Origin: a virus
Taxonomy: Duplodnaviria > Heunggongvirae > Uroviricota > Caudoviricetes
IMG/VR virus record: IMGVR_UViG_2737471869_000016
Direction: 5' to 3' (one strand)
Length of the DNA: 37,383 nucleotides
The position numbers and the translations under genes were made by a program. Below the pieces are notes generated by a model, which was not told where the DNA came from, searched no databases, and saw nothing but the letters and a program-made list of their open reading frames with translations. Each line of letters opens with the position of its first letter. Position 1 is the first letter of the stretch. Positions 3,591 through 36,759 of this stretch are shown piece by piece.

Positions 3591-3600
3591 AAAGCACCTG

Positions 3601-4176: not shown

Positions 4177-4192
4177 CCCACTAGCCTCCTGA

Positions 4193-4879: not shown

Positions 4880-4894
4880 TAGTAGGGAGGTGAC

Positions 4895-5545
4895 ATGGCC
4901 GTCAACTCAAACGGTTCAAACAATCGCGTTGCAGGGCGTGATTTTCACGAAAAGAATATTCAGATAGAGCGATATGATGGTTCTCATACCGTCAATATCG
5001 CAATCCCTTCGAATAATGATGATGACGATCGCCCTTTGCTTAAGGCTCAGCGTAAGGAGCTAAATAGCTTGGTTGCTGCTATTGCAGAAGCTAGCAATAC
5101 TGAAGCGTTTATTATTTGGCAAAAAGTACATGCGGAGATTGGTGTAGCTGGTATTGATGATATGACAGTAAATCAATATAAAACAGCGGAGAGTTTTCTG
5201 CATGCAATGCTTGAGCGATGTAAAGATCATGATGCCTGTAAGGCTCTTGTAAGTTTATTACTACGTAACAGTGAAGACTGTGGACTTCGACAAAAACTTC
5301 TGCGGTATTGCCATATCAATTTCGGTACAGGACGTTTAAACGATCTTACTCGTTCTCAGTTACAGTCTGCATTGTCGTGGTTAGAGCAACAATCGGCATC
5401 AAGCCACACAGAGAGTTCGACCTTACCAGAAGTCCGACTACGTGCTTCAGAATTAATCCGACTTTATCCAAAAGAAATAATATTCTTTATCTGCGTAGGG
5501 GTTTTGGTAGGCGGTGTCATTTCTAGGGCGTTTTTTAATTTGTAA
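4895..5545 (+). CDS. Hypothetical protein with C-terminal hydrophobic segment (216 aa)
   Basis: ORF-track frame; C-terminus IIFFICVGVLVGGVISRAFF is a probable transmembrane helix. N-terminus repeats the motif NNRVAGRDFHE also found at the C-terminus of the preceding regulator. Confidence 0.55.
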   Translation: MAVNSNGSNNRVAGRDFHEKNIQIERYDGSHTVNIAIPSNNDDDDRPLLKAQRKELNSLVAAIAEASNTEAFIIWQKVHAEIGVAGIDDMTVNQYKTAESFLHAMLERCKDHDACKALVSLLLRNSEDCGLRQKLLRYCHINFGTGRLNDLTRSQLQSALSWLEQQSASSHTESSTLPEVRLRASELIRLYPKEIIFFICVGVLVGGVISRAFFNL

Positions 5546-5574
5546 TCTTACTTGAGCTAAATTGAGGTAATGAT

Positions 5575-5922
5575 ATGAAAGTAAAAAAGGTTCAACTATT
5601 AGTTACTTTTTTATCTATGTTTTCTTTTTCCGCCGTCGCAATGCCTTTTAAAACTATTGAACGTGAGAGTTTCAAGGGGGTATGGCCATTTAATACTGAT
5701 GAGGTTCAATTACAGTGTCTTGATGGTAATCCTTATGTGATGAATTTTGACGATAATAAGTTATATGCACTTACAGGTTTGGCTCGAATAAAAGGTAAAA
5801 CATTTGGTGCGTTACCGTTAGATAACAATAATCCATTTTGGCTAGATAATGATGCCGCCCCAGGGTTAAAAAAGAGTCTGGGGGATGTCACTAAGGCTGC
5901 ATTTGATTTATGTGATAAGTAA
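5575..5922 (+). CDS. Small secreted/periplasmic protein (115 aa)
   Basis: N-terminus MKVKKVQLLVTFLSMFSFSAVAMP looks like a signal peptide; SD-like sequence upstream. Confidence 0.6.
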   Translation: MKVKKVQLLVTFLSMFSFSAVAMPFKTIERESFKGVWPFNTDEVQLQCLDGNPYVMNFDDNKLYALTGLARIKGKTFGALPLDNNNPFWLDNDAAPGLKKSLGDVTKAAFDLCDK

Positions 5923-5927
5923 CTAAA

Positions 5928-6929
5928 ATGTCGGTTCGTAAGATTCCATCAGGTAAATGGCTTTGCGAATGTTATCCCTACGGGGCATCGGGAAAACGCA
6001 TTCGTAAACAGTTTGCGACAAAAAGTGAGGCGCTCTCTTATGAGCGCCGTTTAATGAATAGTAGAGTTGGAGACGAGTTTCAAGATGGTTCTGGTCCTCG
6101 TCTTTCTGAGTTGATTGCTCGTTGGTTTGAGATGTACGGTAAAACCTTGTCCTCTGGTGCAGAGCGCAAAGTCAAACTTGAGGCGATTTGTTCCAGGCTG
6201 GGAGATCCATTTGCTTCTCAGTTTGACAAAAATATGTTTGCTACTTATCGGGAAAGAAGGCTATCAGGAGAATGGAATCCCAAGGGGAAGAAAAAACTTA
6301 GTGAAGCAACCGTTAATCGCGAGCAGTCATATCTACATGCTGTTTTTGCCGAACTGAAGCGCCTTGGGGAGTGGTCTGGTGAAAACCCCCTGACTGGTAT
6401 TCGCAAGTTTCGTGAGGAAGAAAAGGAACTGGCGTTTCTGTATGTAGATGAGATTGAACGCCTTCTGATTGCGTGTGATGAGTCACGGAATAAAGATTTG
6501 GGGGTTGTTGTCCGTATTGGGCTTGCGACGGGTGCTCGGTGGAGTGAAGCAGAAGGATTAAAGCAATCTCAAGTACTGCCCGGTCGAATCACATTTGTTA
6601 AAACTAAAGGAAAGAAGAACCGCACTGTACCGATTTCACCTCAATTGCAGGCTATGCTTCCTAAAAAACGAGGAGCGCTATTTTCACCATGTTATGAGGC
6701 TTTTGACGCTGCAATTAAGAGAGCGAAGATCGAGCTTCCTGATGGGCAATTAACTCATGTGCTACGTCACACGTTTGCCAGTCATTTTATGATGCGGGGC
6801 GGAAATATTCTTGTGTTGCAAAAAATACTGGGGCATAGCGATATAAAAATGACTATGCGTTATGCGCATTTTGCTCCAGGTCATTTAGAGGCTGCTGTTG
6901 AATTGAACCCTTTTGACAATAGAGGGTAA
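5928..6929 (+). CDS. int: Tyrosine site-specific integrase, phage P2-like (333 aa)
   Basis: Catalytic-region motifs TGARWSEA, ITFVKTKGKKNRTVPIS, HVLRHTFASHFMMRGGNILVLQKILGH and MTMRYAHFAP (R..HxxR..Y). Recalled similarity to the phage P2 Int C-terminal region. Gene ends ~100 bp before the tRNA-Leu-derived att-like fragment. Confidence 0.9.
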   Translation: MSVRKIPSGKWLCECYPYGASGKRIRKQFATKSEALSYERRLMNSRVGDEFQDGSGPRLSELIARWFEMYGKTLSSGAERKVKLEAICSRLGDPFASQFDKNMFATYRERRLSGEWNPKGKKKLSEATVNREQSYLHAVFAELKRLGEWSGENPLTGIRKFREEEKELAFLYVDEIERLLIACDESRNKDLGVVVRIGLATGARWSEAEGLKQSQVLPGRITFVKTKGKKNRTVPISPQLQAMLPKKRGALFSPCYEAFDAAIKRAKIELPDGQLTHVLRHTFASHFMMRGGNILVLQKILGHSDIKMTMRYAHFAPGHLEAAVELNPFDNRG

Positions 6930-7035
6930 AAAGTGGCGATAAAAAGTGACAATAGATTCAAATGGCGTTGTATAGAGCCATTTTCAAAGTTAATAAAATC
7001 ATAAGGTTATGATTTATAAATGGTGGTTGATAGTT

Positions 7036-7090
7036 TTTAAAATCCCTCGGCGTTCGCGCTGTGCGGGTTCAAGTCCCGCTCCGGGTACCA
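7036..7090 (+). other. att-like fragment: 3' ~55 nt of tRNA-Leu(UAA) (anticodon loop, variable arm, T-arm, acceptor 3' strand, ACCA); not an intact tRNA gene
   Basis: TTTAAAATCCCTCGGCGTTCGCGCTGTGCGGGTTCAAGTCCCGCTCCGGGTACCA: T-stem GCGGG/CCCGC around the GTTCAAGTC T-loop, ending in ACCA. No complementary 5' acceptor strand (GCCCGGA) or D-arm upstream, so this is a partial copy as left by integration into a tRNA gene. Confidence 0.8.
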
Positions 7091-7132
7091 TGGGAAACAT
7101 CAGAATAATCAAAGCAATAAGCAGTGTCGTGA

Positions 7133-7156
7133 AACCACCTTCGGGTGGTTTTTTTG
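7133..7156 (+). terminator. Rho-independent terminator
   Basis: AAACCACC-TTCG-GGTGGTTT hairpin followed by a T-run, ~40 nt after the tRNA-derived ACCA. Confidence 0.75.
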
Positions 7157-7331
7157 TGCATGCAATTCACGCCCTGTGCATATCCTGTGCTCACGGGGTG
7201 CAATGAGCTGCAATCTACAGCCTGGCAATGCCGAATTGAACGTGTCGCCTCCAGCATAGAGAACCAGGCCGCTTTGCCTGTTTTCCGGTACTCTTCCGGG
7301 AAGGGGGGCCTGCTGAGCAAACTGTAATGTT

Positions 7332-14316: not shown

Positions 14317-16980
14317 TCAGGCTGGAAGACAGAATGTCGGATATTTACGGGCTATGATATCCATCAGTGACTTCATTCGCGGTGTTACAGAACTAAATTT
14401 CATTTGGGGTATTTTTGCTCTTACCGCATTTTTTACATCAGTCACCGTTACTGAATAGCCTTCTGACGTCAGCCATTCAGCAACCTCTTTACAGGAATAA
14501 CTTTTTTTATCTTTCAGCATCAGCCCCCATTGGCACTGAGTCAGCGCCCGGAGAAATAGTCTGACTAAAATATCATCACTACGTTTGCTTCCGACTTTTA
14601 GTTTCATATCAGAAAACACCGTCCGGCAATAGAGAAAATCACACCAGTCATCCCAGTCAGCCAGGGTCTTCAGTGTATGCGTTTGCCGCCAGTCGTCGAA
14701 AAGAGAGCGTTGCTGCAGAGCCTCTTCCATATTATCCCATGGGCGGGAAAACATCAGTAAATGCCCTTCATTCATGGCGGGCTGTACGGGCTGGCGTTTG
14801 AAATCGAATTCCAGATTAAGACGGATATCCTGTTCCCGGGATACCAGATCGCTTTCCGACAGCCACATCTCACGCGTTGATATCAACGTACTTCGGGATA
14901 ACGTCTGACCGGGTAAACGATTAAGGTAAAGATCTACCATATAGTCGTTATAGTCACTGCGTGGAATATCGGCAGGAGGTTTGACGCCAGCCCTGGCATG
15001 AACAACAGGTTTTCCCTGAATAGCTCTATAGGTTAACTGCCCCCGGGTTTTCATGGCGATAAGCTGGCTGACTTCATGCTTACATGTCAACATTGATGAA
15101 CCCGGATCAACAATATCGCACAGCGACTGGAAGCGGGAAGACAGTGGACCGCTCATGTTTATCTTGTTAAGTGGGCAATTTGTCAAAAAGCCATCGGTTG
15201 TGACGCTGACAACCGATGAATCAGAAGGCAAAGCATTCATGAGTTCCCCGGCAACGGCGCGGATAAATCCCGTTACATGCGCAGCAAAGAATGGCTGAGT
15301 AACCGATGATGGCGGGAGGGATCTGTTTAATCCACGGGCAGTATCAAAGGCGGTTTTGGCGCGAAGGCCCTGAGCAAGTTTGCCATAAAGCGAGTTGCCA
15401 ATTTCTTTCCAGAATTTCTCCTCCAGAGAACCTTTAATATGGCGATTACGGTTCTCACGGACCTGTTGAACAAAGGGAAGAAACACCGATGTTGATTCGC
15501 TGTTATGTGGGGAGATGTCACAGATCCAGGGGACGATGATCCCATTATGGATCGTCATCTCTGCCCCGAGCGACAGAGCAAGTTCGATTTCAGGTGCCGT
15601 TGCCCATGATTCGCCACTTAATGGAAAGAATAACCCATATTGATCGGTCCGAACCGGCAGGCTGGGATAGGGAACTGATTCCGGGAACCGAAATGTGACA
15701 AGCGCAAATCCCATTACATGCCCACAGTAATCGTCCGGATTTTTACTGAGGCGGATGTTCCCGTAATCGGGTGTGAGGATATCTAATAGCCCGGTGGTAT
15801 ACGCTCCAGCCAGATCGTAGTCATACCAGTGATCAGACGGTGTAACCCCCATCATAAAACACTCATTGCGTCCGCCGTGGTAACAGTTGATCGGGAACGT
15901 TTCAAACAACTCTCTTGAAGGAACACTGGCGGGGTTTTTAATCGTCCGGAATGCCTGTTTTTCCGTGAGCCAGAGTTCACGGGTTTTAATGTGTGTCCCA
16001 AGGCAGACTTCAGGAGACATATTGTTTTCTTTAAGTGTTTTGGTGAACCGTGAAACTGCCATCGCCCCGATGGTGGCGGGGACACGATCAATCATCAGCT
16101 CCCGGGCGCAAAAATTGCGAACCTGTAAAGCATAACGAACCGCAATCTCGGCATCCCGCAGAGCATAGGCTTCAAACCCTGCTCTGTCGCCCAGAAGATA
16201 TTCACGCATATTGGTTATGGAATAAGGTGCAGGAATGGTGAGTTTGGGAAGACCCAGTAATTCACCACATTCAGCCAGACCCATACCCCCGGGAGTGATA
16301 AGCAGTGTATCGATGAAAGCTACGTTACTGCAACGCGGAGGGGAAGTTCGTTTGTCAAACATTATCTGTTCAGTCTTTACGCGACGTTCCTGCTGTTCAT
16401 CAAAATCGATACCGTAACGATTTTTGAAGCTGCTGACAGTACCGCGTATTCCTTTCAGAAGAATTTTGTAGTCTGACCAGAAATTGGCAAAGGAGGCGAT
16501 ATCCGCACGAATGAAATGCGCATATATATTAATAATACCGGGCCATTTTGTAATCACACCCGTTTCAAGAAGCGGTGTAATCGTTTGACAGAGAAATTCC
16601 TTAAAAGACAGCCGGGATTTTTTCTGTGAGTCAGGTGGATAGATAATGTTCGATATACCTGTATTATCGGGTAAGACAACATAACTCTGATATGACAGAA
16701 TATCATTCTGTCGTGTTTCAGGGTTGAAAACATATTCGGTATCAAAACCGATATGGAGCGTCAGGTCGTTTGAAATCACAGACACGTTTTTTGATGCAGG
16801 TGGCATCACAGGATAATCATCAAGCGTTTTAGGTCTTTTACGATTGAGCACTGGCTCTGAAGTCACGGACTGATACCCCGAGGCGGCAGCGAGGATATCC
16901 TGCAAATTATGGCTCATAGTTAACTCCGAAAAAATGCCGGGAGCTGTGTCCCGGCATAAAGAATCAAGATTTAATAACAT
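14317..16980 (-). CDS. Family-B DNA polymerase of the primer-independent type (piPolB), pipolin hallmark (887 aa in ORF track; likely start at internal Met 16917, RBS GGAG)
   Basis: PolB motifs read in the translation: Exo I IGFDTEYV (DxE), Exo III YALRDAEI (Yx3D), motif B KEIGNSLYGKLAQG (Kx3NSxYG), motif C-like VTTDGF, and AMKTRGQ, i.e. the KTRG motif that I recall replacing KxY in piPolBs. Neighbours are integrase and AlpA/Xis-like genes. Confidence 0.85.
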   Translation of the reverse strand: MLLNLDSLCRDTAPGIFSELTMSHNLQDILAAASGYQSVTSEPVLNRKRPKTLDDYPVMPPASKNVSVISNDLTLHIGFDTEYVFNPETRQNDILSYQSYVVLPDNTGISNIIYPPDSQKKSRLSFKEFLCQTITPLLETGVITKWPGIINIYAHFIRADIASFANFWSDYKILLKGIRGTVSSFKNRYGIDFDEQQERRVKTEQIMFDKRTSPPRCSNVAFIDTLLITPGGMGLAECGELLGLPKLTIPAPYSITNMREYLLGDRAGFEAYALRDAEIAVRYALQVRNFCARELMIDRVPATIGAMAVSRFTKTLKENNMSPEVCLGTHIKTRELWLTEKQAFRTIKNPASVPSRELFETFPINCYHGGRNECFMMGVTPSDHWYDYDLAGAYTTGLLDILTPDYGNIRLSKNPDDYCGHVMGFALVTFRFPESVPYPSLPVRTDQYGLFFPLSGESWATAPEIELALSLGAEMTIHNGIIVPWICDISPHNSESTSVFLPFVQQVRENRNRHIKGSLEEKFWKEIGNSLYGKLAQGLRAKTAFDTARGLNRSLPPSSVTQPFFAAHVTGFIRAVAGELMNALPSDSSVVSVTTDGFLTNCPLNKINMSGPLSSRFQSLCDIVDPGSSMLTCKHEVSQLIAMKTRGQLTYRAIQGKPVVHARAGVKPPADIPRSDYNDYMVDLYLNRLPGQTLSRSTLISTREMWLSESDLVSREQDIRLNLEFDFKRQPVQPAMNEGHLLMFSRPWDNMEEALQQRSLFDDWRQTHTLKTLADWDDWCDFLYCRTVFSDMKLKVGSKRSDDILVRLFLRALTQCQWGLMLKDKKSYSCKEVAEWLTSEGYSVTVTDVKNAVRAKIPQMKFSSVTPRMKSLMDIIARKYPTFCLPA

Positions 16981-19213: not shown

Positions 19214-20344
19214 CTACAGTTTCATGATCTTGTTCGCTATTTTTTCGAAGTAAACCTCATTCTTAAGAAGAGTGATATTGTTAGTTTGAACACCCAGACC
19301 ACTGGACGTTGACTGGAAATTCATTGAACCACTTATCACTGTGGACTTTCCTGATAAAAAGGAAATCAACTCCTTGGAAGATGGTGCCCACTCAGGGTTT
19401 AAGAGTAATGCAATATAGATATATGTCTTACGAAGCAATTGTTCGATATCTTTTTTATGCCCTGTAGTGTTTTGCTTACCTTTAATGCAAATAGATTTGA
19501 TTATGAACTCATCAGGGCTGGTTAAAGGCGTTTTAAACTTATTCAGTGATCCATCGTTATGAATGACTTCATAAGGCAGCATAGATAAAATGATCAATGC
19601 AATCATTTTAGGATGATAAAGGTAGTTATCACGAATGATTTTTCCTGCCTTCATTGTATTGAGCGTTGTTTGAATAAATACAAAAAGATATTCAGAGCAA
19701 AAGTAACAAAACACAAGCCAGGATAGGTCAATGGCTGGAATGTTAATATCCTTAGGTAGTTTGTTTAGCCAGTATTCAGACTTCAAAAAGGTCCTGATTT
19801 CAACAGTATATTCATGCATTTTTGCGCTGAAATCAAGCATTGCTACTTGACCTGATTGTTCCGTAACTGTGTGGTCTATAAATGTTAGTGTATTGCACAT
19901 TTTATCCAGCGTGTTTTGAAAACAAGAAAGGAGTTCGGCATTATTATTACCATTAACCGCAGATGAAAGTTCAGTTTTAATAAATGCATCCAGTAGCATA
20001 CAGATTTCTTTCGGAATTACATTTTTACGGGATTGCTGTGAATAGAAATGTACTGCCAGTAAATTAAAGGCAGTGCACTCCTTTTTTAACCATTGTTCGA
20101 GCACTGGGACGTGCTGAAAAAAATTGATATGCTTAGCAGTAGATGCTGATGGAGACAGTACATGAAGAATATCTACAGCAGGCTTCATTTGCAATATTTG
20201 ATCGGATTCGGTAGTCGTCATTAGTTCCAGTAATTGCTGTTCAGAAAATAGTTTAGACAGGTGATCAATGTCTTTTTGGTATTGATTAAGTTTTGTTAAA
20301 TTCCCCGGTATACGGGTTACATTGTTTTTCATTTTCTCGAACAT
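19214..20344 (-). CDS. Hypothetical protein (376 aa), AT-rich
   Basis: Long ORF in a strongly AT-rich block; no motif recognised; location beside an R-M operon. Confidence 0.6.
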   Translation of the reverse strand: MFEKMKNNVTRIPGNLTKLNQYQKDIDHLSKLFSEQQLLELMTTTESDQILQMKPAVDILHVLSPSASTAKHINFFQHVPVLEQWLKKECTAFNLLAVHFYSQQSRKNVIPKEICMLLDAFIKTELSSAVNGNNNAELLSCFQNTLDKMCNTLTFIDHTVTEQSGQVAMLDFSAKMHEYTVEIRTFLKSEYWLNKLPKDINIPAIDLSWLVFCYFCSEYLFVFIQTTLNTMKAGKIIRDNYLYHPKMIALIILSMLPYEVIHNDGSLNKFKTPLTSPDEFIIKSICIKGKQNTTGHKKDIEQLLRKTYIYIALLLNPEWAPSSKELISFLSGKSTVISGSMNFQSTSSGLGVQTNNITLLKNEVYFEKIANKIMKL

Positions 20345-20850: not shown

Positions 20851-22086
20851 TTAAAAGGAAATAAATAATGCCTTCCGCCGATGAATCAATATGCTGATTT
20901 CCCTCAAATCAGCCTCAATACTACCAACATCACCAAAGACTTCACCTCTAATCTCACTTCGATTTTTCATGAAATTGGTGCTTAATAAGCTTTCTTTTTT
21001 TAATGCCATTAATTTTGGTTTTATATCGTTATAGAAGTGCTTATGGCTTACCCTGATGTTATGAATCGAGTAGTAAACTGTTTTATACATCAAAAATATA
21101 AGTAACTGGCCGAGAAGATATTCTTTTTCAATGTATTTATATTGAGAGGATTTTTCGCGTTTCGCCAGGTAGAAAACATGAGGTGCGATGATGGTGGGGA
21201 TAAAATCCAGTGCTGGAGAGGTTTTGGTTTTTTCTGTTTCTCTTCCGGATTGAAGATGTTGAAGTACAGAGTATGCAATGCTTAATATTATGGCATTGCT
21301 TATATTATTAATTTCAGTTGGGTAAATATGCAGGTTGCTTATCAATTCTGAAAGGCAAAGTAAAACACCAGTGATGTTGGGTTTTCTGCCAGAGATTGTG
21401 GTGCTGTTGAAAATGTGACGATTCTTACGACTTATATTGACAAGTTTATGAGTGCAGAACTCTATATGTTTGACGATTTTATCTTGACTATTTTTAATGT
21501 ATTTTGAAATGTTAGTGATCCGGCCATTCAACGTTAGTTCATCAAGCAATATATCATTTTTAATATTGCGAATTTCATCGCAATGTTTAGATTCAAAAAC
21601 TATCTCATGTAATACATAACTCGAAGTATTGCGTGACGATGCTGATATGTAATCTAAAATGGAATGCTCGACTTTGATTTTTTGTTTGTATTTTTTAATG
21701 CACTGTTTGATTGTTTTTTGTAGAGTATTTGAGATGTGTTTTTTATATTCTTTTAGAAAATCTTGCTCTAAAAAGAGTGAGGAGAAGATCAACTGCTGGC
21801 GAGATAATTTAATCTCAGGCTTGATCAATTTAATCCGAAAAACTCTTCCCTCCAACTCATAGCTGAACATGGAAGATAAGTCATAGTGGGGTGATAAATG
21901 TTCGAGTAACGACATTCGTGTATTCATTAGCCGTTTGAATTTATGGTCAGCATACATAAGTGTTTTTTTTATTTGCTCATCATAAAGTGGGCCGATAGCG
22001 CAGTTGGCAATACTCATTCTATCCGGAGACCTCCAGTCAGCAGGGGAATCACATTGACGGTCATCATTACTATCAAAGGGCATCAA
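20851..22086 (-). CDS. Hypothetical protein (411 aa), AT-rich
   Basis: Long ORF in an AT-rich block; Lys/Ile/Asn-rich; no motif recognised. Confidence 0.6.
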   Translation of the reverse strand: MMPFDSNDDRQCDSPADWRSPDRMSIANCAIGPLYDEQIKKTLMYADHKFKRLMNTRMSLLEHLSPHYDLSSMFSYELEGRVFRIKLIKPEIKLSRQQLIFSSLFLEQDFLKEYKKHISNTLQKTIKQCIKKYKQKIKVEHSILDYISASSRNTSSYVLHEIVFESKHCDEIRNIKNDILLDELTLNGRITNISKYIKNSQDKIVKHIEFCTHKLVNISRKNRHIFNSTTISGRKPNITGVLLCLSELISNLHIYPTEINNISNAIILSIAYSVLQHLQSGRETEKTKTSPALDFIPTIIAPHVFYLAKREKSSQYKYIEKEYLLGQLLIFLMYKTVYYSIHNIRVSHKHFYNDIKPKLMALKKESLLSTNFMKNRSEIRGEVFGDVGSIEADLREISILIHRRKALFISF

Positions 22087-22389: not shown

Positions 22390-23913
22390 ATGAACGACAA
22401 AATCAGTCAGGACACGATCAACAAAGCCCTGTGGGCCGCGTGTGATACGTTCCGTGGCACCATCAGTGCTGATACCTATAAAGACTTTATCCTTACCATG
22501 CTGTTCCTCAAGTACATTTCAGATGTCTGGCAGGATCACTATGACGAATACAAAGAACAGTATGGCGATGCGCCGGAACTGATTGAAGCGATGATGGCCA
22601 ACGAGCGTTTTGTACTGCCAAAAAGTGCCAGCTTTTATGCGCTGTACGAACGCCGCCATGAGCCGGGTAACGGTGAGCGTATCGATCAGGCGCTGCATGC
22701 GATTGAAGAAGCCAACGGCACCAAACTGAAAGATGCCGGGAAAAGCGTGTTCCAGGATATTTCGTTTAACACTGACCGCTTGGGTGAAGAAAAACAGAAG
22801 AACACCATCCTGCGCCAGCTGCTGGAAGACTTTGCCGGTGAAGATCTTAACCTGAAGCCAAGCCGTGTAGGTACGCTGGACGTTATCGGTAACGCTTACG
22901 AATATCTGATTAAAAACTTTGCCGCCAGCGGTGGGCAGAAAGCCGGGGAATTCTATACGCCGCCGGAAGTTTCGGACCTGATTGCAGAACTGCTCGATCC
23001 GCAACCGGGTGATACCATCTGTGACCCTGCCTGTGGTTCTGGTTCGTTGTTAATGAAGTGCGGGCGTAAGATTGTCTCCGGGCATGAAAGCCGTAACTAT
23101 GCTTTGTTCGGTCAGGAAGCGATTGGCTCCACGTGGTCGCTGGCGAAAATGAACATGTTTCTTCACGGCGAAGACAACCACAAAATCGAGTGGGGCGATA
23201 CCATTCGTAACCCGAAGCTACTCGATAAAAATGGCGACCTGATGCTGTTTGATATCGTTACCGCTAACCCGCCGTTCAGTCTGGATAAGTGGGGCCATGA
23301 TGAGGCCGAGAACGATAAGTTTGGTCGTTTCCGTCGCGGTGTACCGCCGAAGACTAAAGGAGATTACGCCTTTATCTCGCATATGATAGAAACCCTGAAA
23401 CCGGGAACGGGTCGTATGGGCGTAGTTGTGCCACACGGTGTGCTTTTCCGTGGCTCCAGCGAAGGTAAAATTCGCCAGAAACTGATCGACGAAAATTTGC
23501 TGGATGCGGTAATTGGTCTGCCGGAAAAACTGTTCTACGGTACGGGGATTCCGGCTGCGATTCTGATTTTCAAAAAGCAGAAAGTGGATGACAAGGTGCT
23601 GTTTATCGACGCCAGCCGTGATTATAAGGCTGGTAAAAATCAGAACCAGCTCAGCGCTGAAAATATCCAGAAGATCGTTAACACCTATCGAGAAGGCGAT
23701 AACGTCGAGAAATACGCCTATCTCGCCAGCCTGAAAGAGATTCAGGACAACGACTATAACCTGAATATTCCGCGCTATGTTGATACCTTTGAGGAAGAGG
23801 AAGAGGTCGATTTGCTGGCCGTGCGTAAAGCGCGAGAGCAACTGAAGGTGGAACTGGCGAAACTGGAAACGGAGATGGCAGGTTATTTGAAGGAGTTAGG
23901 TTATGGTGCCTAA
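22390..23913 (+). CDS. hsdM: Type I restriction-modification system, DNA methyltransferase subunit (507 aa)
   Basis: SAM-binding motif I DPACGSGSLL, EFYTPPEV, catalytic motif IV NPPF (IVTANPPFSL). Confidence 0.95.
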   Translation: MNDKISQDTINKALWAACDTFRGTISADTYKDFILTMLFLKYISDVWQDHYDEYKEQYGDAPELIEAMMANERFVLPKSASFYALYERRHEPGNGERIDQALHAIEEANGTKLKDAGKSVFQDISFNTDRLGEEKQKNTILRQLLEDFAGEDLNLKPSRVGTLDVIGNAYEYLIKNFAASGGQKAGEFYTPPEVSDLIAELLDPQPGDTICDPACGSGSLLMKCGRKIVSGHESRNYALFGQEAIGSTWSLAKMNMFLHGEDNHKIEWGDTIRNPKLLDKNGDLMLFDIVTANPPFSLDKWGHDEAENDKFGRFRRGVPPKTKGDYAFISHMIETLKPGTGRMGVVVPHGVLFRGSSEGKIRQKLIDENLLDAVIGLPEKLFYGTGIPAAILIFKKQKVDDKVLFIDASRDYKAGKNQNQLSAENIQKIVNTYREGDNVEKYAYLASLKEIQDNDYNLNIPRYVDTFEEEEEVDLLAVRKAREQLKVELAKLETEMAGYLKELGYGA

Positions 23914-25135
23914 AGGTTGGATGCTTAAACAGTTGTCGGATATTGTAAAAGAAAAAATATCTTATGGAATTGTTCAGGCGGGACCACATATTCCTAATGG
24001 AATACCTTATATAAAAAGCTCTGACATTAGAGGGGCTATTGATCCTGCGTCACTGCAGAGGACAGCGCCTGAAATACATTATAAGTACAGACGTTCAGCT
24101 GTGCACCCTGGGGATATTATATTCTCCTTGAGAGGCAACATTGGCGAGACAGCCATAGTGCCTTCTAATTTATTAGAAGCGAATTTAACGCAAGGTACAG
24201 CACGGATATCAGTATCTGGTGATCAATGTAATGAGTTTTACCATCAACAATTTGCGATGGATAAATTACGTAATTATATTAATTCCTTGAGCAAAGGGAG
24301 TACATTTAAGGAAATTTCACTAGAAGAGCTACGTAAAGTTAAAGTTCTGTGTGCCCCCCTTCCTGAACAAAAGAAAATTGCTCAAATCCTGTCCACCTGG
24401 GATAAGGCAATTACGGTGACGGAAAAGCTTCTCGTCAACAGCCAGCAGCAGAAAAAAGCCCTGATGCAGCAATTGCTTACCGGGAAAAAACGCCTGCTGG
24501 ATGAGAATGGGGTGAGGTTTAGCACGGAGTGGGAGTTTAAAAGAATAAGTGAAATAGCAACGCGAGTTCAACGTAAAAATGATGCTGCCGAACATCCTAT
24601 TTTAACAATATCATCTTTGTCCGGATTTGTCCGGCAGGATGAGCGTTATAGTCGTTATATGGCGGGAGAAAGTGTGAAAAATTATATCCTGCTTAAAAAA
24701 GGTGAGTTTGCATATAACAAAGGAAACTCAAAAACATACGAGTTCGGATGTATTTTTGACCTTGAAGCATATGAAGCAGGACTGGTACCCCATGTCTATG
24801 TTTGCTTTAGATTAAAAAATGGGCTCAGTCACCGTTATTTTAAATATTTATTTGAGGCTGATTATCTCAAGCCACAGTTAGGGGCGTTAGTTAATACTGG
24901 GGTCCGAAATAATGGTTTATTAAATATCAAACCGACAGAGTTTATGCAAACAAAAGTCCCTGTTCCATGTTTTGAAGAGCAGGAAAGCATCGCTGATATG
25001 TTATATAACTCCAGCAGGACGATACGTGTTCTTCAGGATAAACTCGCCTGCCTGAAAGACGAGAAAAAAGCCCTGATGCAACAGCTACTGACTGGCAAAC
25101 GTCGTGTTAAGGTCGATGAGGCGGTTGCCGTATGA
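23903..25135 (+). CDS. hsdS: Type I restriction-modification system, specificity subunit (410 aa)
   Basis: Duplicated conserved segments KKALMQQLLTGKKRL (central) and KKALMQQLLTGKRRV (C-terminal) separating two target-recognition domains; start overlaps hsdM stop. Confidence 0.9.
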   Translation: MVPKGWMLKQLSDIVKEKISYGIVQAGPHIPNGIPYIKSSDIRGAIDPASLQRTAPEIHYKYRRSAVHPGDIIFSLRGNIGETAIVPSNLLEANLTQGTARISVSGDQCNEFYHQQFAMDKLRNYINSLSKGSTFKEISLEELRKVKVLCAPLPEQKKIAQILSTWDKAITVTEKLLVNSQQQKKALMQQLLTGKKRLLDENGVRFSTEWEFKRISEIATRVQRKNDAAEHPILTISSLSGFVRQDERYSRYMAGESVKNYILLKKGEFAYNKGNSKTYEFGCIFDLEAYEAGLVPHVYVCFRLKNGLSHRYFKYLFEADYLKPQLGALVNTGVRNNGLLNIKPTEFMQTKVPVPCFEEQESIADMLYNSSRTIRVLQDKLACLKDEKKALMQQLLTGKRRVKVDEAVAV

Positions 25136-25815
25136 AACTGACGAAAAGCGGTCCACTGACTGACCGGGAAATCGACTGGCTGGAAGAAATATTAATGAAG
25201 TATGGAATGGATGATTCTGTACTCTGTTTCTCTGAGCTGGATGGATTGCTGACGGCGATTTTATCAGGTCCAAATATGGTTTCACCCAATATCTGGCTGA
25301 GTGCTATTTGGGGAGGAGGCGATTATCATCCGAAATGGTCATCTGAGAGAGAGATGGAGCGTTTTGTCAGTCTGTGTTTTCAGCATATGAACGATATCGC
25401 TGGTTGCCTTTATGACGCCCCTGAACTGTTTGAGCCGATTTTCAATGAGCGTGAGGTAAAGGGGGAAAAATATACCATTGTGGAAGAGTGGTGTTTTGGT
25501 TATATGAAAGGAAAGTCACTGGATGACTGGTCTGGTCTTCCCGGTGAGTTACGGCCTTCTCTGGAAGTGATCGCTCTTCATGGCGTGGAGAAGAATTTTC
25601 CTGTACTTGAGAAAATGACCGGAGAGCAGTTTGAGAAAAGTATTTCCCTTATTCAGCCTGCTGCACTGGCACTTTATCAGTACTGGTTGTCAGTGAGAAT
25701 GTCAGAGGCATCATCCCGGCCTGTTCCAGTGAAGGGGGCAGAAAACATGCCCGGGCGAAATGACCCGTGTCCGTGTGGCAGCGGTAAAAAATTTAAGAAG
25801 TGCTGTCTGCATTGA
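25132..25815 (+). CDS. YecA-like (UPF0149-type) protein with C-terminal SEC-C metal-binding motif (227 aa), embedded in the hsd operon
   Basis: C-terminal GRNDPCPCGSGKKFKKCCLH is a SEC-C zinc-binding motif; overall length and layout resemble E. coli YecA as I recall it; ATGA start/stop overlap with hsdS. Confidence 0.7.
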   Translation: MKLTKSGPLTDREIDWLEEILMKYGMDDSVLCFSELDGLLTAILSGPNMVSPNIWLSAIWGGGDYHPKWSSEREMERFVSLCFQHMNDIAGCLYDAPELFEPIFNEREVKGEKYTIVEEWCFGYMKGKSLDDWSGLPGELRPSLEVIALHGVEKNFPVLEKMTGEQFEKSISLIQPAALALYQYWLSVRMSEASSRPVPVKGAENMPGRNDPCPCGSGKKFKKCCLH

Positions 25816-25864
25816 TGAATCTTCATGTGACCAGTAGCGAGTAGCGCCAGAAAGAAAAGGATTA

Positions 25865-28800
25865 ATGATGAACCAGACGTACACGCCAAAATTCCAGGAA
25901 GAATACAGCGCCAAAATTCCGGCACTGACGTTACTGACCAGCCTCGGCTGGACGTTTTTATCTCCGAAACAGATTATGGATTACCGGGGCTATAAACAGG
26001 ATGAGGTGGTGCTGCGTCCGGTTCTGCGTGAAGAGCTGTCGAAGCGTTCCTTTATGGCGGGTGGCAAAACCTGCCAGTTATCGGAAAAAGCACTGGATAA
26101 CCTGATATCACAGGTCTGTTCTCCGGCGCTCAATGAAGGGCTGCTCAAAGCCAATGAACGGATGTATAACCATCTGCTCTACGGTATCGCCGTCACGGAG
26201 TTTGTCGATGGCAAGAAGGTGAACCCCACCATTGCGCTGATCGACTGGGAACATCCGGAAAATAACCAGTTCCATTTTACCGAAGAATTTACGGTATTGC
26301 GGTCAGGCGGTGTCGAAACCCGCAGGCCGGATATTGTGTGTTTTGTGAATGGTATCCCGCTGGCCGTCATTGAAGCGAAAAGCCCGGCGGGTCACGGCAA
26401 GAAAGGGCCAACCATTGACGAAGGGATATCCCAGAGTATCCGCAATCAGCTCAACGACGAAATCCCGCAGCTGTTTGCTTACAGCCAGATATTACTGTCG
26501 ATTAACGGGCATGACGGGCGCTACGGTACCTGTCATACACCAATGAAATTCTGGGCGGCATGGCGCGAAGAAGATATTACTTACGCGCAGATGTATGCGC
26601 TGCGCAACCATAAGTTATCGACTGAACAAATTCATGCGTTGTTTGATCATCGTCCTTCAGTCGATCTCAAATGGTATCAACAGTTAATCGATGGGGGGGA
26701 ACTGGCAGTCAGCGGGCAGGATAAGCTGCTCATCAGTCTGCTTTCACCGGAACGTCTGCTGGAGATGACCCGCTTCTTCACCCTGTTTGATAAAAAAACC
26801 GGAAAAATTGTTGCCCGCTATCAGCAGGTGTTCGGGATAAAAAGACTGCTGGAACGCATCAGTACCCGCAGACCAGACGGGGGCAGGGAAGGTGGGGTGA
26901 TCTGGCATACCACGGGGTCAGGTAAATCTTACACCATGGTGTTCCTCAGCAAGGCGCTGATTCTTCATGACAGCCTGAAGCGGTGTCGTATCGTGGTGGT
27001 GACGGACCGTATCGATCTTGAAGAACAGCTCAGCAATACCTTTGCATCCGGCGGCGAGTTGGCCGGGAAAAAAGACAAAGCCAATGCAATGGCGACATCC
27101 GGGCAGATGCTGGCGAAACAGATTGGCTCCGGTAAAGAACGCATCATTTTCACCCTAATCCAGAAATTTAATTCAGCGACAAAACTTCCTGAATGCGTCA
27201 ATACCAGCCCCGATATCATCGTTCTGATTGATGAAGGACACCGTAGCCAGGGTGGTGAGAACCATGTGCGAATGAAACTGGCACTGCCGAACGCCGCCTT
27301 TGTAGCATTTACTGGTACGCCATTGCTAAAAGAAGATAAGACCACCAATAAATTCGGACCGATTGTCCACGCTTATACCATGCAGCGAGCGGTAGAAGAT
27401 AAAGCCGTTACACCTTTGCTGTATGAAGAACGTATTCCCGACCTTGAGGTTAACGATCGGGCAATAGATGCCTGGTTTGATCGTATTACCGATGGGTTAA
27501 GCGAAGCGCAAAAAGCCGACCTTAAGCGTAAATATGCCCGTAAAGGTGAGGTTTATAGTGCAGATGATCGCATCCGTCTGATCGCACTCGATATCGCCAC
27601 GCACTTCTCGAAGAATATTGATGAGGGACTGAAAGGCCAGCTTGCCTGCGACAGCAAGATTTCCGCCATCAAATATAAAAAGTATCTTGATGAAGCCGGG
27701 TTGTTTGAGTCAGCTGTAGTTATCAGCCCGCCGGATACCCGGGAAGGGAATACTGAGGTGGATGAAAGCAAACTGCCGGAAGTGACGAAATGGTGGAAAG
27801 ATAACGTCGGCACGCAGGATGAGTCTGTGTATACCCGCAATATCATCAGTCGTTTCGATACCGATGAGAAGCTCAAATTGCTGATAGTCGTTGATAAACT
27901 GCTCACCGGGTTTGATGAGCCGAAGAATACCGTGCTGTATATCGACAAGCCGCTTAAGTCCCACAACCTTATCCAGGCGATTGCGCGGGTGAACCGACTG
28001 CATCCACTGAAAAAGTTCGGTCTGCTGATTGATTATCGCGGTATTCTGGCTGAGCTGGACACGACTATCGGCAAATATCAGGACCTCGCCTCCCGAACTC
28101 AGGGCGGATACGATATCAAAGATATTGACGGGCTGTACAGCGCCATGAGCTCTGAATACAAGCGTCTACCGCATCTGTATAACCAGCTGTGGGCCATATT
28201 TGCCGGTGTTAAAAACAAAAATGATACTGAGCAGTTACGTGCGGTACTGGTGCCTAAAATGGAAGAACGTGACGGAGAGATGGTCGATATCCATCAGAAA
28301 ACCCGTGATGATTTCTTCGAGGCGTTAACGGCCTTCGCCGGATGCCTGAAAGTGGCACTGCAGTCCGCCACCTTCTTCACCGACAAAAGCTTTACGGAAC
28401 AAGACCGAAACCTCTATAAAGAAACCGTAAAACAGATGTCCAGCCTGCGCCAGTGGGCGATGCAGGTCAGTGGAGAGCAGGTCAATTATGACGACTACGC
28501 GGAGCAGGTGAAAAAACTGCTGGATAAGCATGTCACCGGCGTTGAGGTTCGTGAACCGGATGGCGTGTATGAAGTCGGTAAAATGGGCAAGAGCGAAAAG
28601 CCCTCAGAGTGGGACAACAATAAAACCCGCAATGAAACCGACATCATTAAAACCCGCGTGACGAAGATGATTGAGCAGGAATTGCGTGATGACCCGTATG
28701 CTCAGGAGGCATTTTCAAAACTCCTGCGTATGGCTATCGAAGAGGCTGAAAAACTGTTTGACCATCCGCTGAAACAGTACCTTTTGTTCCGTGAATTTGA

Positions 28801-29152
28801 AGAACAGGTTGAAGCCCGTAAGCTCAGCGATATCCCGGATGCACTGGCGGTAAACAAGCATGCTCAGGCGTATTACGGTGTATTTAAAAAAGAGCTACCT
28901 GAGGTTTTTGCGGTAAACGACGTTCAGGTGCAGGATAAGTGGACGAAGCTGGCTTTTGAAGTGGACAACATTATCGTCAAAGCGGTGGCAGAAAACTCCC
29001 TGAACCCCCAGGACATTGAGAAAGTCGTTAAGACAAGTCTGCTACCACTGCTGTTTACGGCCTGCCGGGAAATTGGTGCCGGAATGAATCAGGTTAACCG
29101 TATTGTGGAAACCATCATCCAGATACTGCGCGTTGGTTTGATGAAATCATGA
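25865..29152 (+). CDS. hsdR: Type I restriction enzyme, R (endonuclease/translocase) subunit (1095 aa)
   Basis: Helicase motif I HTTGSGKSYTM, motif II DEAH-type VLIDEGHRSQ; size typical of HsdR. Confidence 0.95.
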   Translation: MMNQTYTPKFQEEYSAKIPALTLLTSLGWTFLSPKQIMDYRGYKQDEVVLRPVLREELSKRSFMAGGKTCQLSEKALDNLISQVCSPALNEGLLKANERMYNHLLYGIAVTEFVDGKKVNPTIALIDWEHPENNQFHFTEEFTVLRSGGVETRRPDIVCFVNGIPLAVIEAKSPAGHGKKGPTIDEGISQSIRNQLNDEIPQLFAYSQILLSINGHDGRYGTCHTPMKFWAAWREEDITYAQMYALRNHKLSTEQIHALFDHRPSVDLKWYQQLIDGGELAVSGQDKLLISLLSPERLLEMTRFFTLFDKKTGKIVARYQQVFGIKRLLERISTRRPDGGREGGVIWHTTGSGKSYTMVFLSKALILHDSLKRCRIVVVTDRIDLEEQLSNTFASGGELAGKKDKANAMATSGQMLAKQIGSGKERIIFTLIQKFNSATKLPECVNTSPDIIVLIDEGHRSQGGENHVRMKLALPNAAFVAFTGTPLLKEDKTTNKFGPIVHAYTMQRAVEDKAVTPLLYEERIPDLEVNDRAIDAWFDRITDGLSEAQKADLKRKYARKGEVYSADDRIRLIALDIATHFSKNIDEGLKGQLACDSKISAIKYKKYLDEAGLFESAVVISPPDTREGNTEVDESKLPEVTKWWKDNVGTQDESVYTRNIISRFDTDEKLKLLIVVDKLLTGFDEPKNTVLYIDKPLKSHNLIQAIARVNRLHPLKKFGLLIDYRGILAELDTTIGKYQDLASRTQGGYDIKDIDGLYSAMSSEYKRLPHLYNQLWAIFAGVKNKNDTEQLRAVLVPKMEERDGEMVDIHQKTRDDFFEALTAFAGCLKVALQSATFFTDKSFTEQDRNLYKETVKQMSSLRQWAMQVSGEQVNYDDYAEQVKKLLDKHVTGVEVREPDGVYEVGKMGKSEKPSEWDNNKTRNETDIIKTRVTKMIEQELRDDPYAQEAFSKLLRMAIEEAEKLFDHPLKQYLLFREFEEQVEARKLSDIPDALAVNKHAQAYYGVFKKELPEVFAVNDVQVQDKWTKLAFEVDNIIVKAVAENSLNPQDIEKVVKTSLLPLLFTACREIGAGMNQVNRIVETIIQILRVGLMKS

Positions 29153-29904
29153 GTGAAAAAGAATCGCCATCAATGAAAGCGTTACGCATTGTCTATGGTG
29201 ATGAGGTCATCGTCGTACAGTGTGCTCCGCGTCAGGTCGTAAAGGGCAGGGTGCTCATCAAGGTTTATCCGGACTGCCGGGTTGTGGCCTCTGTACCGCC
29301 TGAAACACCGGAGCACGAGGTATTGTCTGCGCTGAAAAAACGTGGGCGCTGGATATACCAGCAACTGCGTGATTTCAGGGAGCAACAGACACACATTGTT
29401 CCGCGTCAGTATGTCAGCGGAGAAAGCCATTATTATCTCGGTAAGCAATATCAGTTGAAAGTGACAGAAGACGCTACTGTGCCGCAACGAGTGAAAATGT
29501 TGCGTGGGCGTCTGGAAGTGACTGTCAGACACAAATCGGCAGAAAAGATTAAAGCCTTGCTGGCTGAATGGTATCGGGAACGTGCCAGAGATGTTTTTCA
29601 GCGCAGGCTTGATTTACTGATTCCGCAGACCCTTTGGGTCAGTGAGCGTCCTCCGATACGTCTGCGGGCGATGCAAACGCAATGGGGCAACTGTTCAGCA
29701 AAAGGCTGTCTGACCCTGAATCCATGGCTGGTTAAGGCATCCTCAGAATGTATCGATTATGTTTTGCTACATGAGTTATGCCATGTGGCTGAACACAACC
29801 ACAGCGAGGAGTTTTACCGTCTGATGGGGCAGGTTATGCCGGGCTGGGAAAAGGTTAAGAAGCGACTGGATGGTATGGCTGGGATGTTGTTGGCAGATAT
29901 GTAA
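29149..29904 (+). CDS. HExxH zinc metallohydrolase, YgjP/DUF45-like (251 aa)
   Basis: HELCHVAEHNHS (HExxH plus downstream His); start overlaps hsdR stop. I recall COG1451-type hydrolases being frequently linked to hsdR. Confidence 0.7.
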   Translation: MSEKESPSMKALRIVYGDEVIVVQCAPRQVVKGRVLIKVYPDCRVVASVPPETPEHEVLSALKKRGRWIYQQLRDFREQQTHIVPRQYVSGESHYYLGKQYQLKVTEDATVPQRVKMLRGRLEVTVRHKSAEKIKALLAEWYRERARDVFQRRLDLLIPQTLWVSERPPIRLRAMQTQWGNCSAKGCLTLNPWLVKASSECIDYVLLHELCHVAEHNHSEEFYRLMGQVMPGWEKVKKRLDGMAGMLLADM

Positions 29905-34665: not shown

Positions 34666-36759
34666 TTGCATTTCCGCGGGTGTGGTTTACAAGGAAAGGC
34701 TGTCAGCATGCATCGCTCTGTTTCTAAGTTTTATCGCATCCCCCCTTTACTTATTCGGGCGCTAAAAAGCGGGGTCGCCTCCGTGGTGGAGTTTCATCTC
34801 AGCAAGGGATTGCCGAAAGATTCACGAGATTCTCTGGGAAATAGCCCATTGATGATTGCGGCCCAGAATGGGCATTTCGCTCTTTGCGAAATGTTGTTGT
34901 GTGCGGGTGTCGATGTTGAGCATCAAAACAACCTCGGGTTTCGCGCCAGTGACCTCGCGCAGGAGCAAACGCTGCGTGATCTGTTAGCTCGTTATCGGCA
35001 ATCTCCTCCGCCTGACGGGCAGCAACTAGCAGGGGGGCTAGATGATGAGGCAAACGTTGAGCTTGTAATTGAAGCCGATGTCGAAACAGAACCTCCCGAA
35101 ACCGAAGACGCAATGGATTTTATGCAGTGGGATGCTGAAATCGAATCGGAACCCGCCGAAGATAATCTGACATTACGACAGGCTTCCGCTGAGGCTCAGC
35201 AATTATTATCCCGCTATCGCCCGATAGATAACGCTGCTGAGTGGATCGATATAGAACTCTCCCTTCCTGACCCGCCGACGCCAGTTTCTAACTCTCCGCA
35301 AAATTATCCCCATTTCTCAACGTTGCTCACTAGCGCACTGGATGTCGGTCGTATCTCTGTTCGTGACATTCGGTCTGCCGGGGAAGATGATTTCGGCATG
35401 CCGTGGCCTGAATTCCGGCTCAGCGTAGAGGCATTGATCAAGGACTTACCTTTGATTGTGGATGGCGATGATGCTTTCCCGGAAAGTGATGCCTTTGGGG
35501 AATTAGCGGCGAGTGATGTTCTCGAGCCCTGGTTTGACGCTTTCGGTGCATTGCGGCAGTCCGGCATCTTTGAACGTTATCTTGTGGACATTCGCCAATG
35601 GGATGTCGTCGATAAAACAAAGGAAGAGCGACTCGGGCAGCGCATGGATACGGCGCTTATCAACTTGATGACGATCCTGGCGAGATTACCCGAAGCAAAA
35701 TATCTACAGTTGCTGCATCCGAATTGCCTTCCCGCGACATCGCCTGAGATTACTGAAGAGGATGACGACGCGGAAGAAGCGGATGAGGAAATCTCTTCCG
35801 CAGCCGATGACGATGACGCCATCACCTTTAACGATCTGCTCATTCTGCTGAGAAGTGGGAAAGCTGAAGAGTACCAGGATAATCATATCCCTCGCCCGGA
35901 GTACCGTGACCTGCAGCAGATAGTCGAGCGCGCCCAAACGCTCATCCCTGATGAATGCCATAATGTCAGTCTGTATGTCAGTAGTTACAGAGACGCATGG
36001 AAGGGGTTTATCCACGCCAATTTACGTCTTGTGGTCGCGATTGCGAAAAAACACTGCGGGCGAGGATTAGATATCGAGGACCTGATCCAGGAAGGTAATC
36101 TGGGATTGATCAAGGCCGTTGAAAAATTCGACTATCGGCGTGGATTCAAATTCTCTACCTATGCCTCCTGGTGGATCCGCCAGAAGATCAGCCGCGCGAT
36201 TGCCGATCAGGCTCAGCTCATTCGTTTACCCGTTCACTTCTATGAGCATTTCAGGCGCTGGCGGAGCAGTCGGGATCAGTTGCTGCATCGCCAAGGGATA
36301 ACGCCCACCCTCAGACGGTTGCAGGAAATGACCGACCTGCCAGAGCGTCAACTTCTTCAGATGGCTAAATATGAAGAACAGACGGTGCTGATTGGTGATT
36401 TTCATGAAGACGCTCAGGACCGCGAAGCAGCATTGTCGGGAGACGCGCTGCTGACCAGAAGGGATTTCACCAGTGCTCCCGTTCAGTCTCTGGAGCTAAG
36501 AGAACATATTTCATCGGTCCTGAATACGCTGTTGCCACGCGAAACACAGATCATAAAAATGCGTTTTGGCATCGGTATGACGCAAGATTTCACGCTGGAA
36601 GAGGTGGGTAAACAGTTTGATGTCACGCGAGAAAGGATACGTCAGATAGAAGCCAAAGCACTCCGTAAGCTCCGTCATCACAGCCGGGCGTCGAAATTAG
36701 GCGGCTTCGTCGAACAGTGGGAAACCGCGTTGAGCGAGATGCAGGAAGAAGAAGAATGA
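34666..36759 (+). CDS. Sigma-70 family (RpoD-like) sigma factor with N-terminal ankyrin repeat(s) and an acidic linker (likely start at 34708)
   Basis: Ankyrin-repeat signature [31 protein letters not shown]; acidic tract [12 protein letters not shown]; sigma region 2 [29 protein letters not shown]; region 4.2 [40 protein letters not shown], closely resembling RpoD region 4 as I recall it. Confidence 0.8.

Follow-up and report, generated by a model that had tools for sequence, protein, structure and literature searches.

A YecA paralogue is embedded in a type I restriction-modification operon

Virus record IMGVR_UViG_2737471869_000016 (IMG/VR), a stretch of 37,383 nucleotides (nt) that we refer to in its entirety as the window, contains at positions 22390–29904 a 7.5-kb operon of five open reading frames (ORFs), all on the same strand. 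Three of these, hsdM, hsdS and hsdR, encode the subunits of a type I restriction-modification (R-M) system, and a fourth, located between hsdS and hsdR, encodes a 227-amino-acid (aa) paralogue of the chaperone YecA (AscA), which is the subject of this report. The hsdM gene (22390–23913, plus strand) encodes a protein of 507 aa that matches the Pfam families N6_Mtase (E 5e-107) and HsdM_N (E 2e-22) and the TIGR00497 model (280 bits against a cut-off of 243), and that contains both the NPPF and the DPACGSG motifs. The hsdS gene (23903–25135, plus strand) overlaps hsdM by 11 nt and encodes a protein of 410 aa with two Methylase_S stretches in Pfam, corresponding to two target-recognition domains, that is recognized by the PADLOC model Specificity_I (E 3e-102); between loci hsdS is the most variable gene of the operon, at 30–40% identity. 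The product of hsdR (25865–29152, plus strand) is a protein of 1095 aa with HSDR_N, SWI2_SNF2, T1R_D3-like and ResIII matches in Pfam, which scores 462 bits against TIGR00348 and 1358 bits against PADLOC REase_I. PADLOC calls MTase_I, Specificity_I and REase_I at the locus and, with all three subunits above the Pfam or NCBIfam cut-offs, the sequences identify it as a type I R-M system, in agreement with a preliminary description of the window that a model had made from its letters and ORF translations. One detail of that description requires correction: motif II of HsdR, given there as DEAH, reads DEGH (LIDEGHRSQ), motif I being TGSGKS. Comparison with known systems indicated neither membership of type IA (the HsdR of EcoKI is 26% identical over 278 aa, E 1e-4, and the HsdM of EcoKI is 26% identical) nor likeness to type IC (the HsdR of EcoR124I, which is the nearest solved structure, matches only the motor core, 297–517, E 1e-32).

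The gene for the YecA paralogue (25132–25815, plus strand) specifies a UPF0149 domain, a linker and a SecA-type metal-binding domain. Its start codon overlaps the stop codon of hsdS in an ATGA, and its own stop codon is followed by a spacer of 49 nt (25816–25864, plus strand) that contains an AAGGA ribosome-binding site ahead of the hsdR ATG and in which a promoter and terminator scan found no terminator-like site. The fifth gene (29149–29904, plus strand), whose start overlaps the hsdR stop in a second ATGA, encodes a YgjP-like metallopeptidase of 251 aa (DUF45; annotated as M48/SprT) that carries an HELCH motif and matches PF01863 (E 3e-58, 197.6 bits against a cut-off of 26); a PDB sequence search returned weak similarity to proabylysin (4jiu). 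The coupling of an HExxH metallohydrolase after hsdR had been noted in the preliminary description and is borne out. The same description had placed the SEC-C gene in translational coupling between hsdS and hsdR; judged from the junctions, strict coupling applies to the hsdS side only, and co-transcription with hsdR across the spacer is plausible. Because the start of the paralogue gene overlaps the hsdS stop, production of the methylase module probably always entails production of the protein. The paralogue is very probably co-expressed with the R-M operon, as had been argued. Promoter-like sites occurred at chance level in the scan (11 sites against 10.5 expected), and one at 25687–25714, within the 3′ end of the yecA-like gene, is no evidence of a separate promoter for hsdR.

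Several lines of sequence evidence indicate that the 227-aa protein is a genuine, full-length YecA/AscA paralogue. It matches Pfam UPF0149 in its N-terminal part (E 5e-30) and SEC-C at residues 209–225 (E 2e-10), in line with the C-terminal SEC-C motif noted in the preliminary description. Aligned to the native YecA of E. coli it is 57% identical over 223 aa (E 3e-99), that is, over its full length, and it scores 356.7 bits, again over the full length, against the YecA equivalog model NF007704 (cut-off 149), for which native YecA scores 437. The CxC...C[CH] metal-binding motif is intact, being identical to that of YchJ-C and close to that of SecA (PDB entries for a YchJ C-terminal peptide and for peptides of the SecA metal-binding domain), and none of the metal-ligand residues varies among paralogues or natives. 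A total of 86 positions reach at least 90% conservation and carry the same residue in the R-M-linked and native groups, among them EEWCFGYM, IALHG and the Cys/His metal ligands; the paralogue clade is set apart by nine fixed clade-specific substitutions. The predicted fold is of the YgfB type (a PDB sequence search found no solved structure of full-length YecA), and no domains other than UPF0149 and SEC-C were detected with Pfam, NCBIfam or PADLOC.

The paralogue thus has the length, the two-domain architecture and the metal-binding motif of native YecA, but it resides on mobile elements and is coupled to hsdS, whereas the native gene stands alone on the chromosome, next to leuZ and tyrP. Native YecA is reported to bind SecB and the ribosome through its metal-binding domain and, when overexpressed, to co-purify with many proteins; in vitro it is reported to suppress aggregation, i.e., to act as a holdase (10.1101/2020.07.21.215244). 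These activities, namely binding of metal, ribosome and SecB as well as holdase activity, have been reported only for native YecA of E. coli (10.1101/2020.07.21.215244, 10.1101/613315). Elsewhere in the family, many representatives (P0144, P0162, P0241, P0257 and others) are 360–640 aa long with extra N-terminal regions, and in two proteins an insertion of about 300 residues separates the UPF0149 domain from the SEC-C motif. The N-terminal extras were considered as a clue to function, and some match DUF6933 or DUF1186, but no hint was gained from them.

The paralogue accompanies hsdS in hundreds of genomes and plasmids

The occurrence of a SEC-C gene within a type I operon had initially been regarded as unusual. 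A survey of loci of the form hsdS-[SEC-C]-hsdR, which the preliminary description had itself proposed, found the arrangement to be common, with hundreds of annotated records. A full-length paralogue is present in 418 of 5426 complete E. coli genomes (~8%), on ~346 plasmids at 80–100% identity, and in nine genera among the GTDB species representatives (Franconibacter, Klebsiella, Intestinirhabdus, Enterobacter, Buttiauxella, Pseudescherichia, Morganella, Citrobacter and an Enterobacterales metagenome-assembled genome). The plasmids are mostly conjugative IncF plasmids of Klebsiella, in which the operon lies downstream of traI-traX-finO; the carriers of the paralogue include clinically important Klebsiella IncF plasmids as well as probable pipolins of E. 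coli.

The link to hsdS is strict. In E. coli, the full-length matches among those listed all lie on a gene annotated as 'restriction endonuclease subunit S', and the same is true of nearly all of the matches listed for plasmids. The paralogue is located immediately 3′ of hsdS in every locus from the GTDB representatives, and the junction between the two genes is an ATGA in all 14 of the junctions read. The hsdR gene occurs in 541 E. coli genomes; the one genome examined that has hsdR and lacks the paralogue contains a remnant of the locus disrupted by an insertion sequence (IS). All of the host genomes examined that carry the chromosomal island also carry native yecA, and the NCBI annotation pipeline PGAP annotates the mobile gene as a YecA family protein.

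Three architectures were observed: hsdS-yecA-like-hsdR, as in the window; the same order with an additional gene for a protein of 595–620 aa before hsdR; and, in Morganella, a GmrSD gene before hsdR. The additional gene of the second architecture (~1.8 kb), which lies between the paralogue and hsdR, specifies a protein whose N terminus holds a weak cold-shock domain and whose C terminus is Cys-rich, and has no match in PADLOC. It is present in 199 E. coli genomes, representing about half of the E. coli loci, and on many Klebsiella plasmids; loci of this kind include L002–L006, L008 and L089 (the gene lies at 7704–9491 in L002 and at 8629–10491 in L089). Short remnants of it are found in some E. 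coli genomes that do not have the gene, which hints at deletion. At the Morganella morganii locus (L009, 4265–10304), HsdM is 42% identical to that of the window with a near-identical C-terminal tail, the GmrSD gene separates the paralogue from an apparently disrupted hsdR start, and the locus appears to be a mosaic.

Two further sets of yecA-like genes were considered and set aside. Distant YecA-family genes (25–33% identity), which are common on plasmids of plant pathogens (90 Xanthomonas records match), have no R-M genes nearby in the loci from Xanthomonas (L084), Pseudomonas (L085) and Acidovorax (L086), so that the R-M link does not reach them; in the Pseudomonas and Acidovorax loci they adjoin Tn3-family or IS66 transposases, in the manner of passenger genes. 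Six 'phage' records (including ON470596, ON470627 and NC_049344) raised the possibility of yecA as a phage gene, but they hold a native-type yecA, 54–57% identical to the paralogue, at the edge of the record, which is probably host DNA flanking prophage boundaries at leuZ. Our literature search found no link of YecA to type I R-M systems or of SEC-C to hsdR, and nothing relevant on COG1451 and restriction. Thus, the arrangement itself is already annotated and detected by PADLOC, and the literature searched does not describe the link to hsdS, the clade structure or the exchangeable slot set out below.

The paralogue forms a separate and constrained clade

One candidate for the source of the embedded gene is the native yecA of the host. 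According to this explanation, which takes up a suggestion of the preliminary description, an island integrated at leuZ would have taken the adjacent yecA by imprecise excision, thereby giving rise to the R-M-linked gene. Indeed, the pipolin integrates at leuZ, native yecA is the first gene of the host to follow its right att repeat, the same adjacency is found in Citrobacter and Pseudescherichia (L045, L054), and the paralogue clade lies among YecAs of the Enterobacterales type. Our sequence comparisons argue otherwise. A search of 5.8 billion proteins recovered a compact clade of paralogues at 74–100% identity and then, after a gap, the native enterobacterial YecAs at 60% or less; apart from chimeras, none of these 5.8 billion proteins falls at 60–74%. 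The R-M-linked YecAs were monophyletic in 97 of 100 neighbour-joining bootstrap replicates and were nested within the Escherichia/Citrobacter/Salmonella clade, where leuZ and yecA are neighbours, in only 5 of 100, the clade falling beside, and not within, the natives of Enterobacteriaceae and Erwiniaceae in a tree whose deep placement is soft, being built by neighbour joining with a simple distance correction. Moreover, the paralogues are ~52–59% identical to the natives of every genus compared, with values of about 55–58% for Escherichia, Citrobacter, Salmonella and Pantoea alike. The gene also sits inside the operon and not at an island edge, and the same operon is found on Klebsiella IncF plasmids, away from any leuZ context. 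We therefore consider a recent capture very unlikely, and we infer from the sequences that the gene goes back to an old duplication, or an old transfer, of a yecA of the enterobacterial type.

One observation indicates that the two kinds of yecA may recombine, and to that extent it speaks for the capture of host sequence. A metagenome scaffold of 1855 bp (L087) contains hsdS followed by a gene whose product (P0019) is of the paralogue type from residue 1 to about residue 116 and of the Citrobacter native type thereafter, followed in turn by tyrP. This chimera could be either the product of a recombinational deletion between directly oriented yecA copies or an assembly artefact.

Estimates of selection indicate that the paralogue is a constrained, functional gene that evolves at a pace typical of its family, since its median pairwise ratio of nonsynonymous to synonymous substitution rates (dN/dS) across seven loci, 0.12, is close to that of native yecA between genera (0.117); the corresponding values for hsdM, hsdR and the metallopeptidase gene are 0.03, 0.04 and 0.06. 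When the window is compared with L002, the paralogue has a dS of 0.83, and hsdM and hsdR have values of 0.36–0.39. Because its dS does not track that of hsdM and hsdR, the paralogue appears to recombine separately from these genes, perhaps together with the adjacent, variable hsdS.

These findings bear on the possibility that the gene is a redundant hitchhiker, which supplies extra chaperone capacity for the Sec pathway, or nothing at all, and is unrelated to restriction or defence. Such a reading would accommodate the score above the YecA equivalog cut-off, the retention of all family hallmarks and the presence of native yecA in the same genomes. It is nevertheless improbable in our estimation. 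In particular, the selection data make a neutral hitchhiker unlikely, as purifying selection on the paralogue is as strong as on native yecA; the clade has fixed its own substitutions at nine positions; and the gene occupies the same coupled position throughout the nine genera and the hundreds of plasmids, a position at which related systems otherwise carry genes of the defence type (see below). Were the paralogue a simple passenger after all, it would still matter for annotation, given that the PDC-S12 model of PADLOC, discussed below, does not tell housekeeping yecA from the mobile copy.

The paralogue occupies an exchangeable slot in an older operon frame

Distant homologues of the metallopeptidase allowed us to examine related operons beyond the Enterobacterales. 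In seven of eight such homologues encoded on plasmids (29–59% identity), the gene resides in the frame hsdM-hsdS-[slot]-hsdR-metallopeptidase, in which the slot holds 0–2 genes; in the eighth, from Planktothrix, the locus has been broken up by transposons. The frame spans Gamma-, Beta- and Alphaproteobacteria and the archaeon Haloquadratum. The contents of the slot differ from one system to the next: a NucS-domain gene and an Abi gene in Acinetobacter, a gene for an ATP-binding protein (ATPase) and a hypothetical gene in Photobacterium, a hypothetical gene and a SLATT-domain gene in Aeromonas, a PDDEXK nuclease gene in Sphaerotilus, and a second hsdS in Haloquadratum, with the slot empty in Acetobacter and Ruegeria. 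Thus, type I R-M operons with a YgjP-like metallopeptidase share the same frame on plasmids of all seven of these genera, and differ in that the YecA paralogue is found in the slot only in the enterobacterial branch, where it can share the slot with the cold-shock/Cys-rich gene or with the GmrSD gene. The literature we found does not establish a role for the metallopeptidase in such operons.

Two features of the Acinetobacter and Photobacterium systems are informative. First, their slot genes also overlap or abut hsdS, and translational coupling is therefore a property of the slot and not of YecA. Second, the HsdR of the Acinetobacter plasmid is 76% identical to that of the window, so that a close relative of the system works with entirely different slot genes, which argues against a role for the paralogue as a core R-M subunit. 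Taken together, the comparisons indicate that the pairing of hsdR with the metallopeptidase is old and general, that the YecA paralogue is a later enterobacterial insertion, and that it represents exchangeable accessory cargo. The slot of this frame could be mined for new defence genes.

Possible functions of the paralogue

Accessory genes embedded in type I R-M loci are not new; the classic example is PrrC, from the EcoprrI locus with its gene order hsdM-hsdS-prrC-hsdR. To our knowledge, those reported to date encode toxins or nucleases; the embedded gene here specifies a paralogue of a housekeeping ribosome-binding chaperone, is strictly coupled to hsdS and is under purifying selection. PrrC is an anticodon nuclease that is embedded in a type IC locus, is kept latent by EcoprrI and is released by the Stp peptide of phage T4 (PMC12707154). 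Like PrrC, the YecA paralogue is encoded between hsdS and hsdR and is strictly linked to the R-M locus; unlike PrrC, it has no nuclease or NTPase domain, and its R-M family is not type IC-like. Searches with Pfam, NCBIfam and PADLOC found no PrrC-like latent effector domain (NTPase plus anticodon nuclease) in the paralogue, which is thus not a member of the PrrC family.

A second connection to defence comes from PADLOC, which assigns the paralogue to PDC-S12 (hidden Markov model PDLC04917) over its full length, with an E value of 3.9e-99 and 329 bits. The model fits native YecA better (366 bits), and the call consequently does not separate native yecA from the mobile paralogue; presumably, PADLOC flags a 'defence candidate' in any genome with native yecA, inflating counts of PDC-S12. 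PDC-S12 and type I R-M systems are both frequent pipolin cargo (PMC11551731), but PDC-S12 is defined as a single-gene candidate, and its coupling to hsdS is not described in the literature we found. The yecA gene of ECOR28, a native gene of the PDC-S12 type, is reported to protect against several T5- and T1-like phages when carried on a plasmid under its own promoter (10.64898/2026.09.05.749240). Our findings lend support, from genomic data independent of that 2026 preprint, to a role for the YecA family in phage defence.

With slot relatives carrying Abi, nuclease and SLATT genes, and with the paralogue in a PrrC-like position, we tentatively favour, at a little under an even chance, an R-M-linked accessory role in defence or as a guard, i.e., that the paralogue is cargo comparable to PrrC, Abi or SLATT proteins and built on a chaperone scaffold. 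We infer that it is not a structural or catalytic subunit of the R-M enzyme. In this role the protein would add a second anti-phage layer or guard the R-M system, and might do so by binding nascent or unfolded proteins at the ribosome in the manner of a chaperone. Several points weigh against such a role. The paralogue has no recognizable toxic or enzymatic effector domain of the kind found in PrrC, Abi and SLATT proteins. It was never seen without hsdS next to it, and in the presence of other cargo it still directly follows hsdS; both observations fit a dedicated R-M helper equally well. The survey of the slot beyond the Enterobacterales comprises eight plasmid loci. Finally, the authors of the ECOR28 study caution that the phage phenotype may reflect altered export or availability of receptors (10.64898/2026.09.05.749240).

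The main rival, which we regard as possible but rather unlikely, is that the paralogue serves the R-M enzyme itself, as a ribosome-tethered holdase that keeps HsdS (or HsdM) competent for assembly or holds back nascent HsdR. In the latter case, restriction would lag behind modification on entry into an unmodified host, amounting to a self-encoded form of restriction alleviation, possibly together with the YgjP-like protease. The invariant ATGA with hsdS and the first position in the slot, at all 14 junctions, are in accord with such a helper, as are the facts that the gene was not found detached from hsdM-hsdS in E. coli genomes, in nearly all of the plasmid matches listed or in GTDB genomes, that all hallmark residues of the chaperone family are kept, and that native YecA is a ribosome-binding holdase. 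Furthermore, the carriers, conjugative IncF plasmids and pipolins, are mobile, and type I systems need a means to avoid self-restriction in new hosts: types IA and IB require host ClpXP for this, and type IC relies on assembly failure (PMC12707154). However, the Acinetobacter relative manages with other slot genes, and the more distant slots in Acetobacter and Ruegeria are empty. The 1.8-kb gene that precedes hsdR in about half of the E. coli loci and on many Klebsiella plasmids leaves no positional logic directed toward HsdR, and the pairing of the metallopeptidase with hsdR long predates the paralogue, so that the paralogue and the peptidase are not an obligate pair.

A more far-reaching proposal, which we think unlikely, is that the paralogue represents the first chaperone-type component of restriction, namely a ribosome-tethered holdase that contacts the type I enzyme or phage anti-restriction proteins and that either gates HsdR assembly or acts as a guard or decoy in the manner of PrrC. 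Gating would hold HsdR assembly in check such that a mobile R-M system could enter unmodified hosts without killing them. As a guard or decoy, the protein would respond when restriction is disabled by DNA-mimic inhibitors, such as the acidic proteins Ocr and ArdA, or by pre-early functions of the T5 type; an acidic surface of SecB is the usual docking site of the basic SecA-type metal-binding domain. If this proposal were correct, UPF0149/SEC-C proteins would be genuine components of immunity, and the anti-phage effect reported for native YecA would have a mechanistic footing. The operon offers a simple genetic system for addressing mechanism, in that a single gene is in question within an operon that can be cloned.

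The operon is cargo of an island at leuZ

The operon belongs to an island whose left boundary is marked in the window by an att-type repeat of 130 bp (7036–7165, plus strand) that contains the 3′ 55 nt of leuZ, the gene for tRNA-Leu(UAA) (7036–7090). The entire remainder of the window from 7036 onwards is 100% identical to E. coli 08-00022 (NZ_CP013662), the identity starting inside leuZ. In that strain the island is ~38.6 kb long and lies between leuZ and native yecA with the repeat at both ends; the second copy (132 bp aligned, 96% identical) is located ~120 bp upstream of native yecA, the first host gene past it. Pipolins have been reported to integrate at tRNA-Leu between pgsA and yecA, with Type 1 RM and PDC-S12 among their frequent and exchanged cargo (PMC11551731), and the island, probably a pipolin itself, matches published pipolins in its position, its att repeat and its two integrases. 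An ORF of 887 aa (14317–16980), annotated in RefSeq as 'DNA polymerase' and without a match in Pfam, would be piPolB, an identification that relies on the description in PMC11551731. The cargo of the island includes two tyrosine recombinases, this 'DNA polymerase' gene, GmrSD, PD-(D/E)XK and Mrr-type genes, and an MZA system.

The statement in the preliminary description that native yecA lies next to leuZ proved accurate. Adjacency of the two genes within 7 kb was found in E. coli and, more widely, in Escherichia, Pseudescherichia, Citrobacter, Salmonella and Yokenella, if not at every locus of these genera; Pantoea, Erwinia, Leclercia and Kosakonia showed no such adjacency within this distance. 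The placement of the island at a tRNA-Leu site likewise stands as regards leuZ beside native yecA, but the window itself contains no complete tRNA gene (ARAGORN found none, and Rfam likewise returned no tRNA). A second element upstream of 7036 would account for the presence of no more of leuZ than its 3′ 55 nt.

The interval from the inner integrase to hsdM holds two ORFs on the minus strand, of 376 aa (19214–20344) and 411 aa (20851–22086), which have no match in Pfam or PADLOC and are hypothetical in RefSeq. Directly 3′ of the operon, the segment 29930–34270 encodes three further defence proteins of the nuclease type, namely a GmrSD/DUF262 protein (PADLOC HEC-06-like), a PD-(D/E)XK_4 protein (PADLOC PDC-S26) and a protein with an Mrr catalytic domain, and 34666–36759 encodes an ankyrin-sigma70 protein that RefSeq annotates as MzaA of the MZA system. 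Positions 1–7035 differ from E. coli 08-00022 and contain minus-strand Rfam matches at 1387–1474 and 1510–1584, to C4 antisense RNA (78.5 bits) and the isrK small RNA (62.8 bits). These features point to another element, resembling a phage or satellite, that would have inserted in tandem at this tRNA-Leu site.

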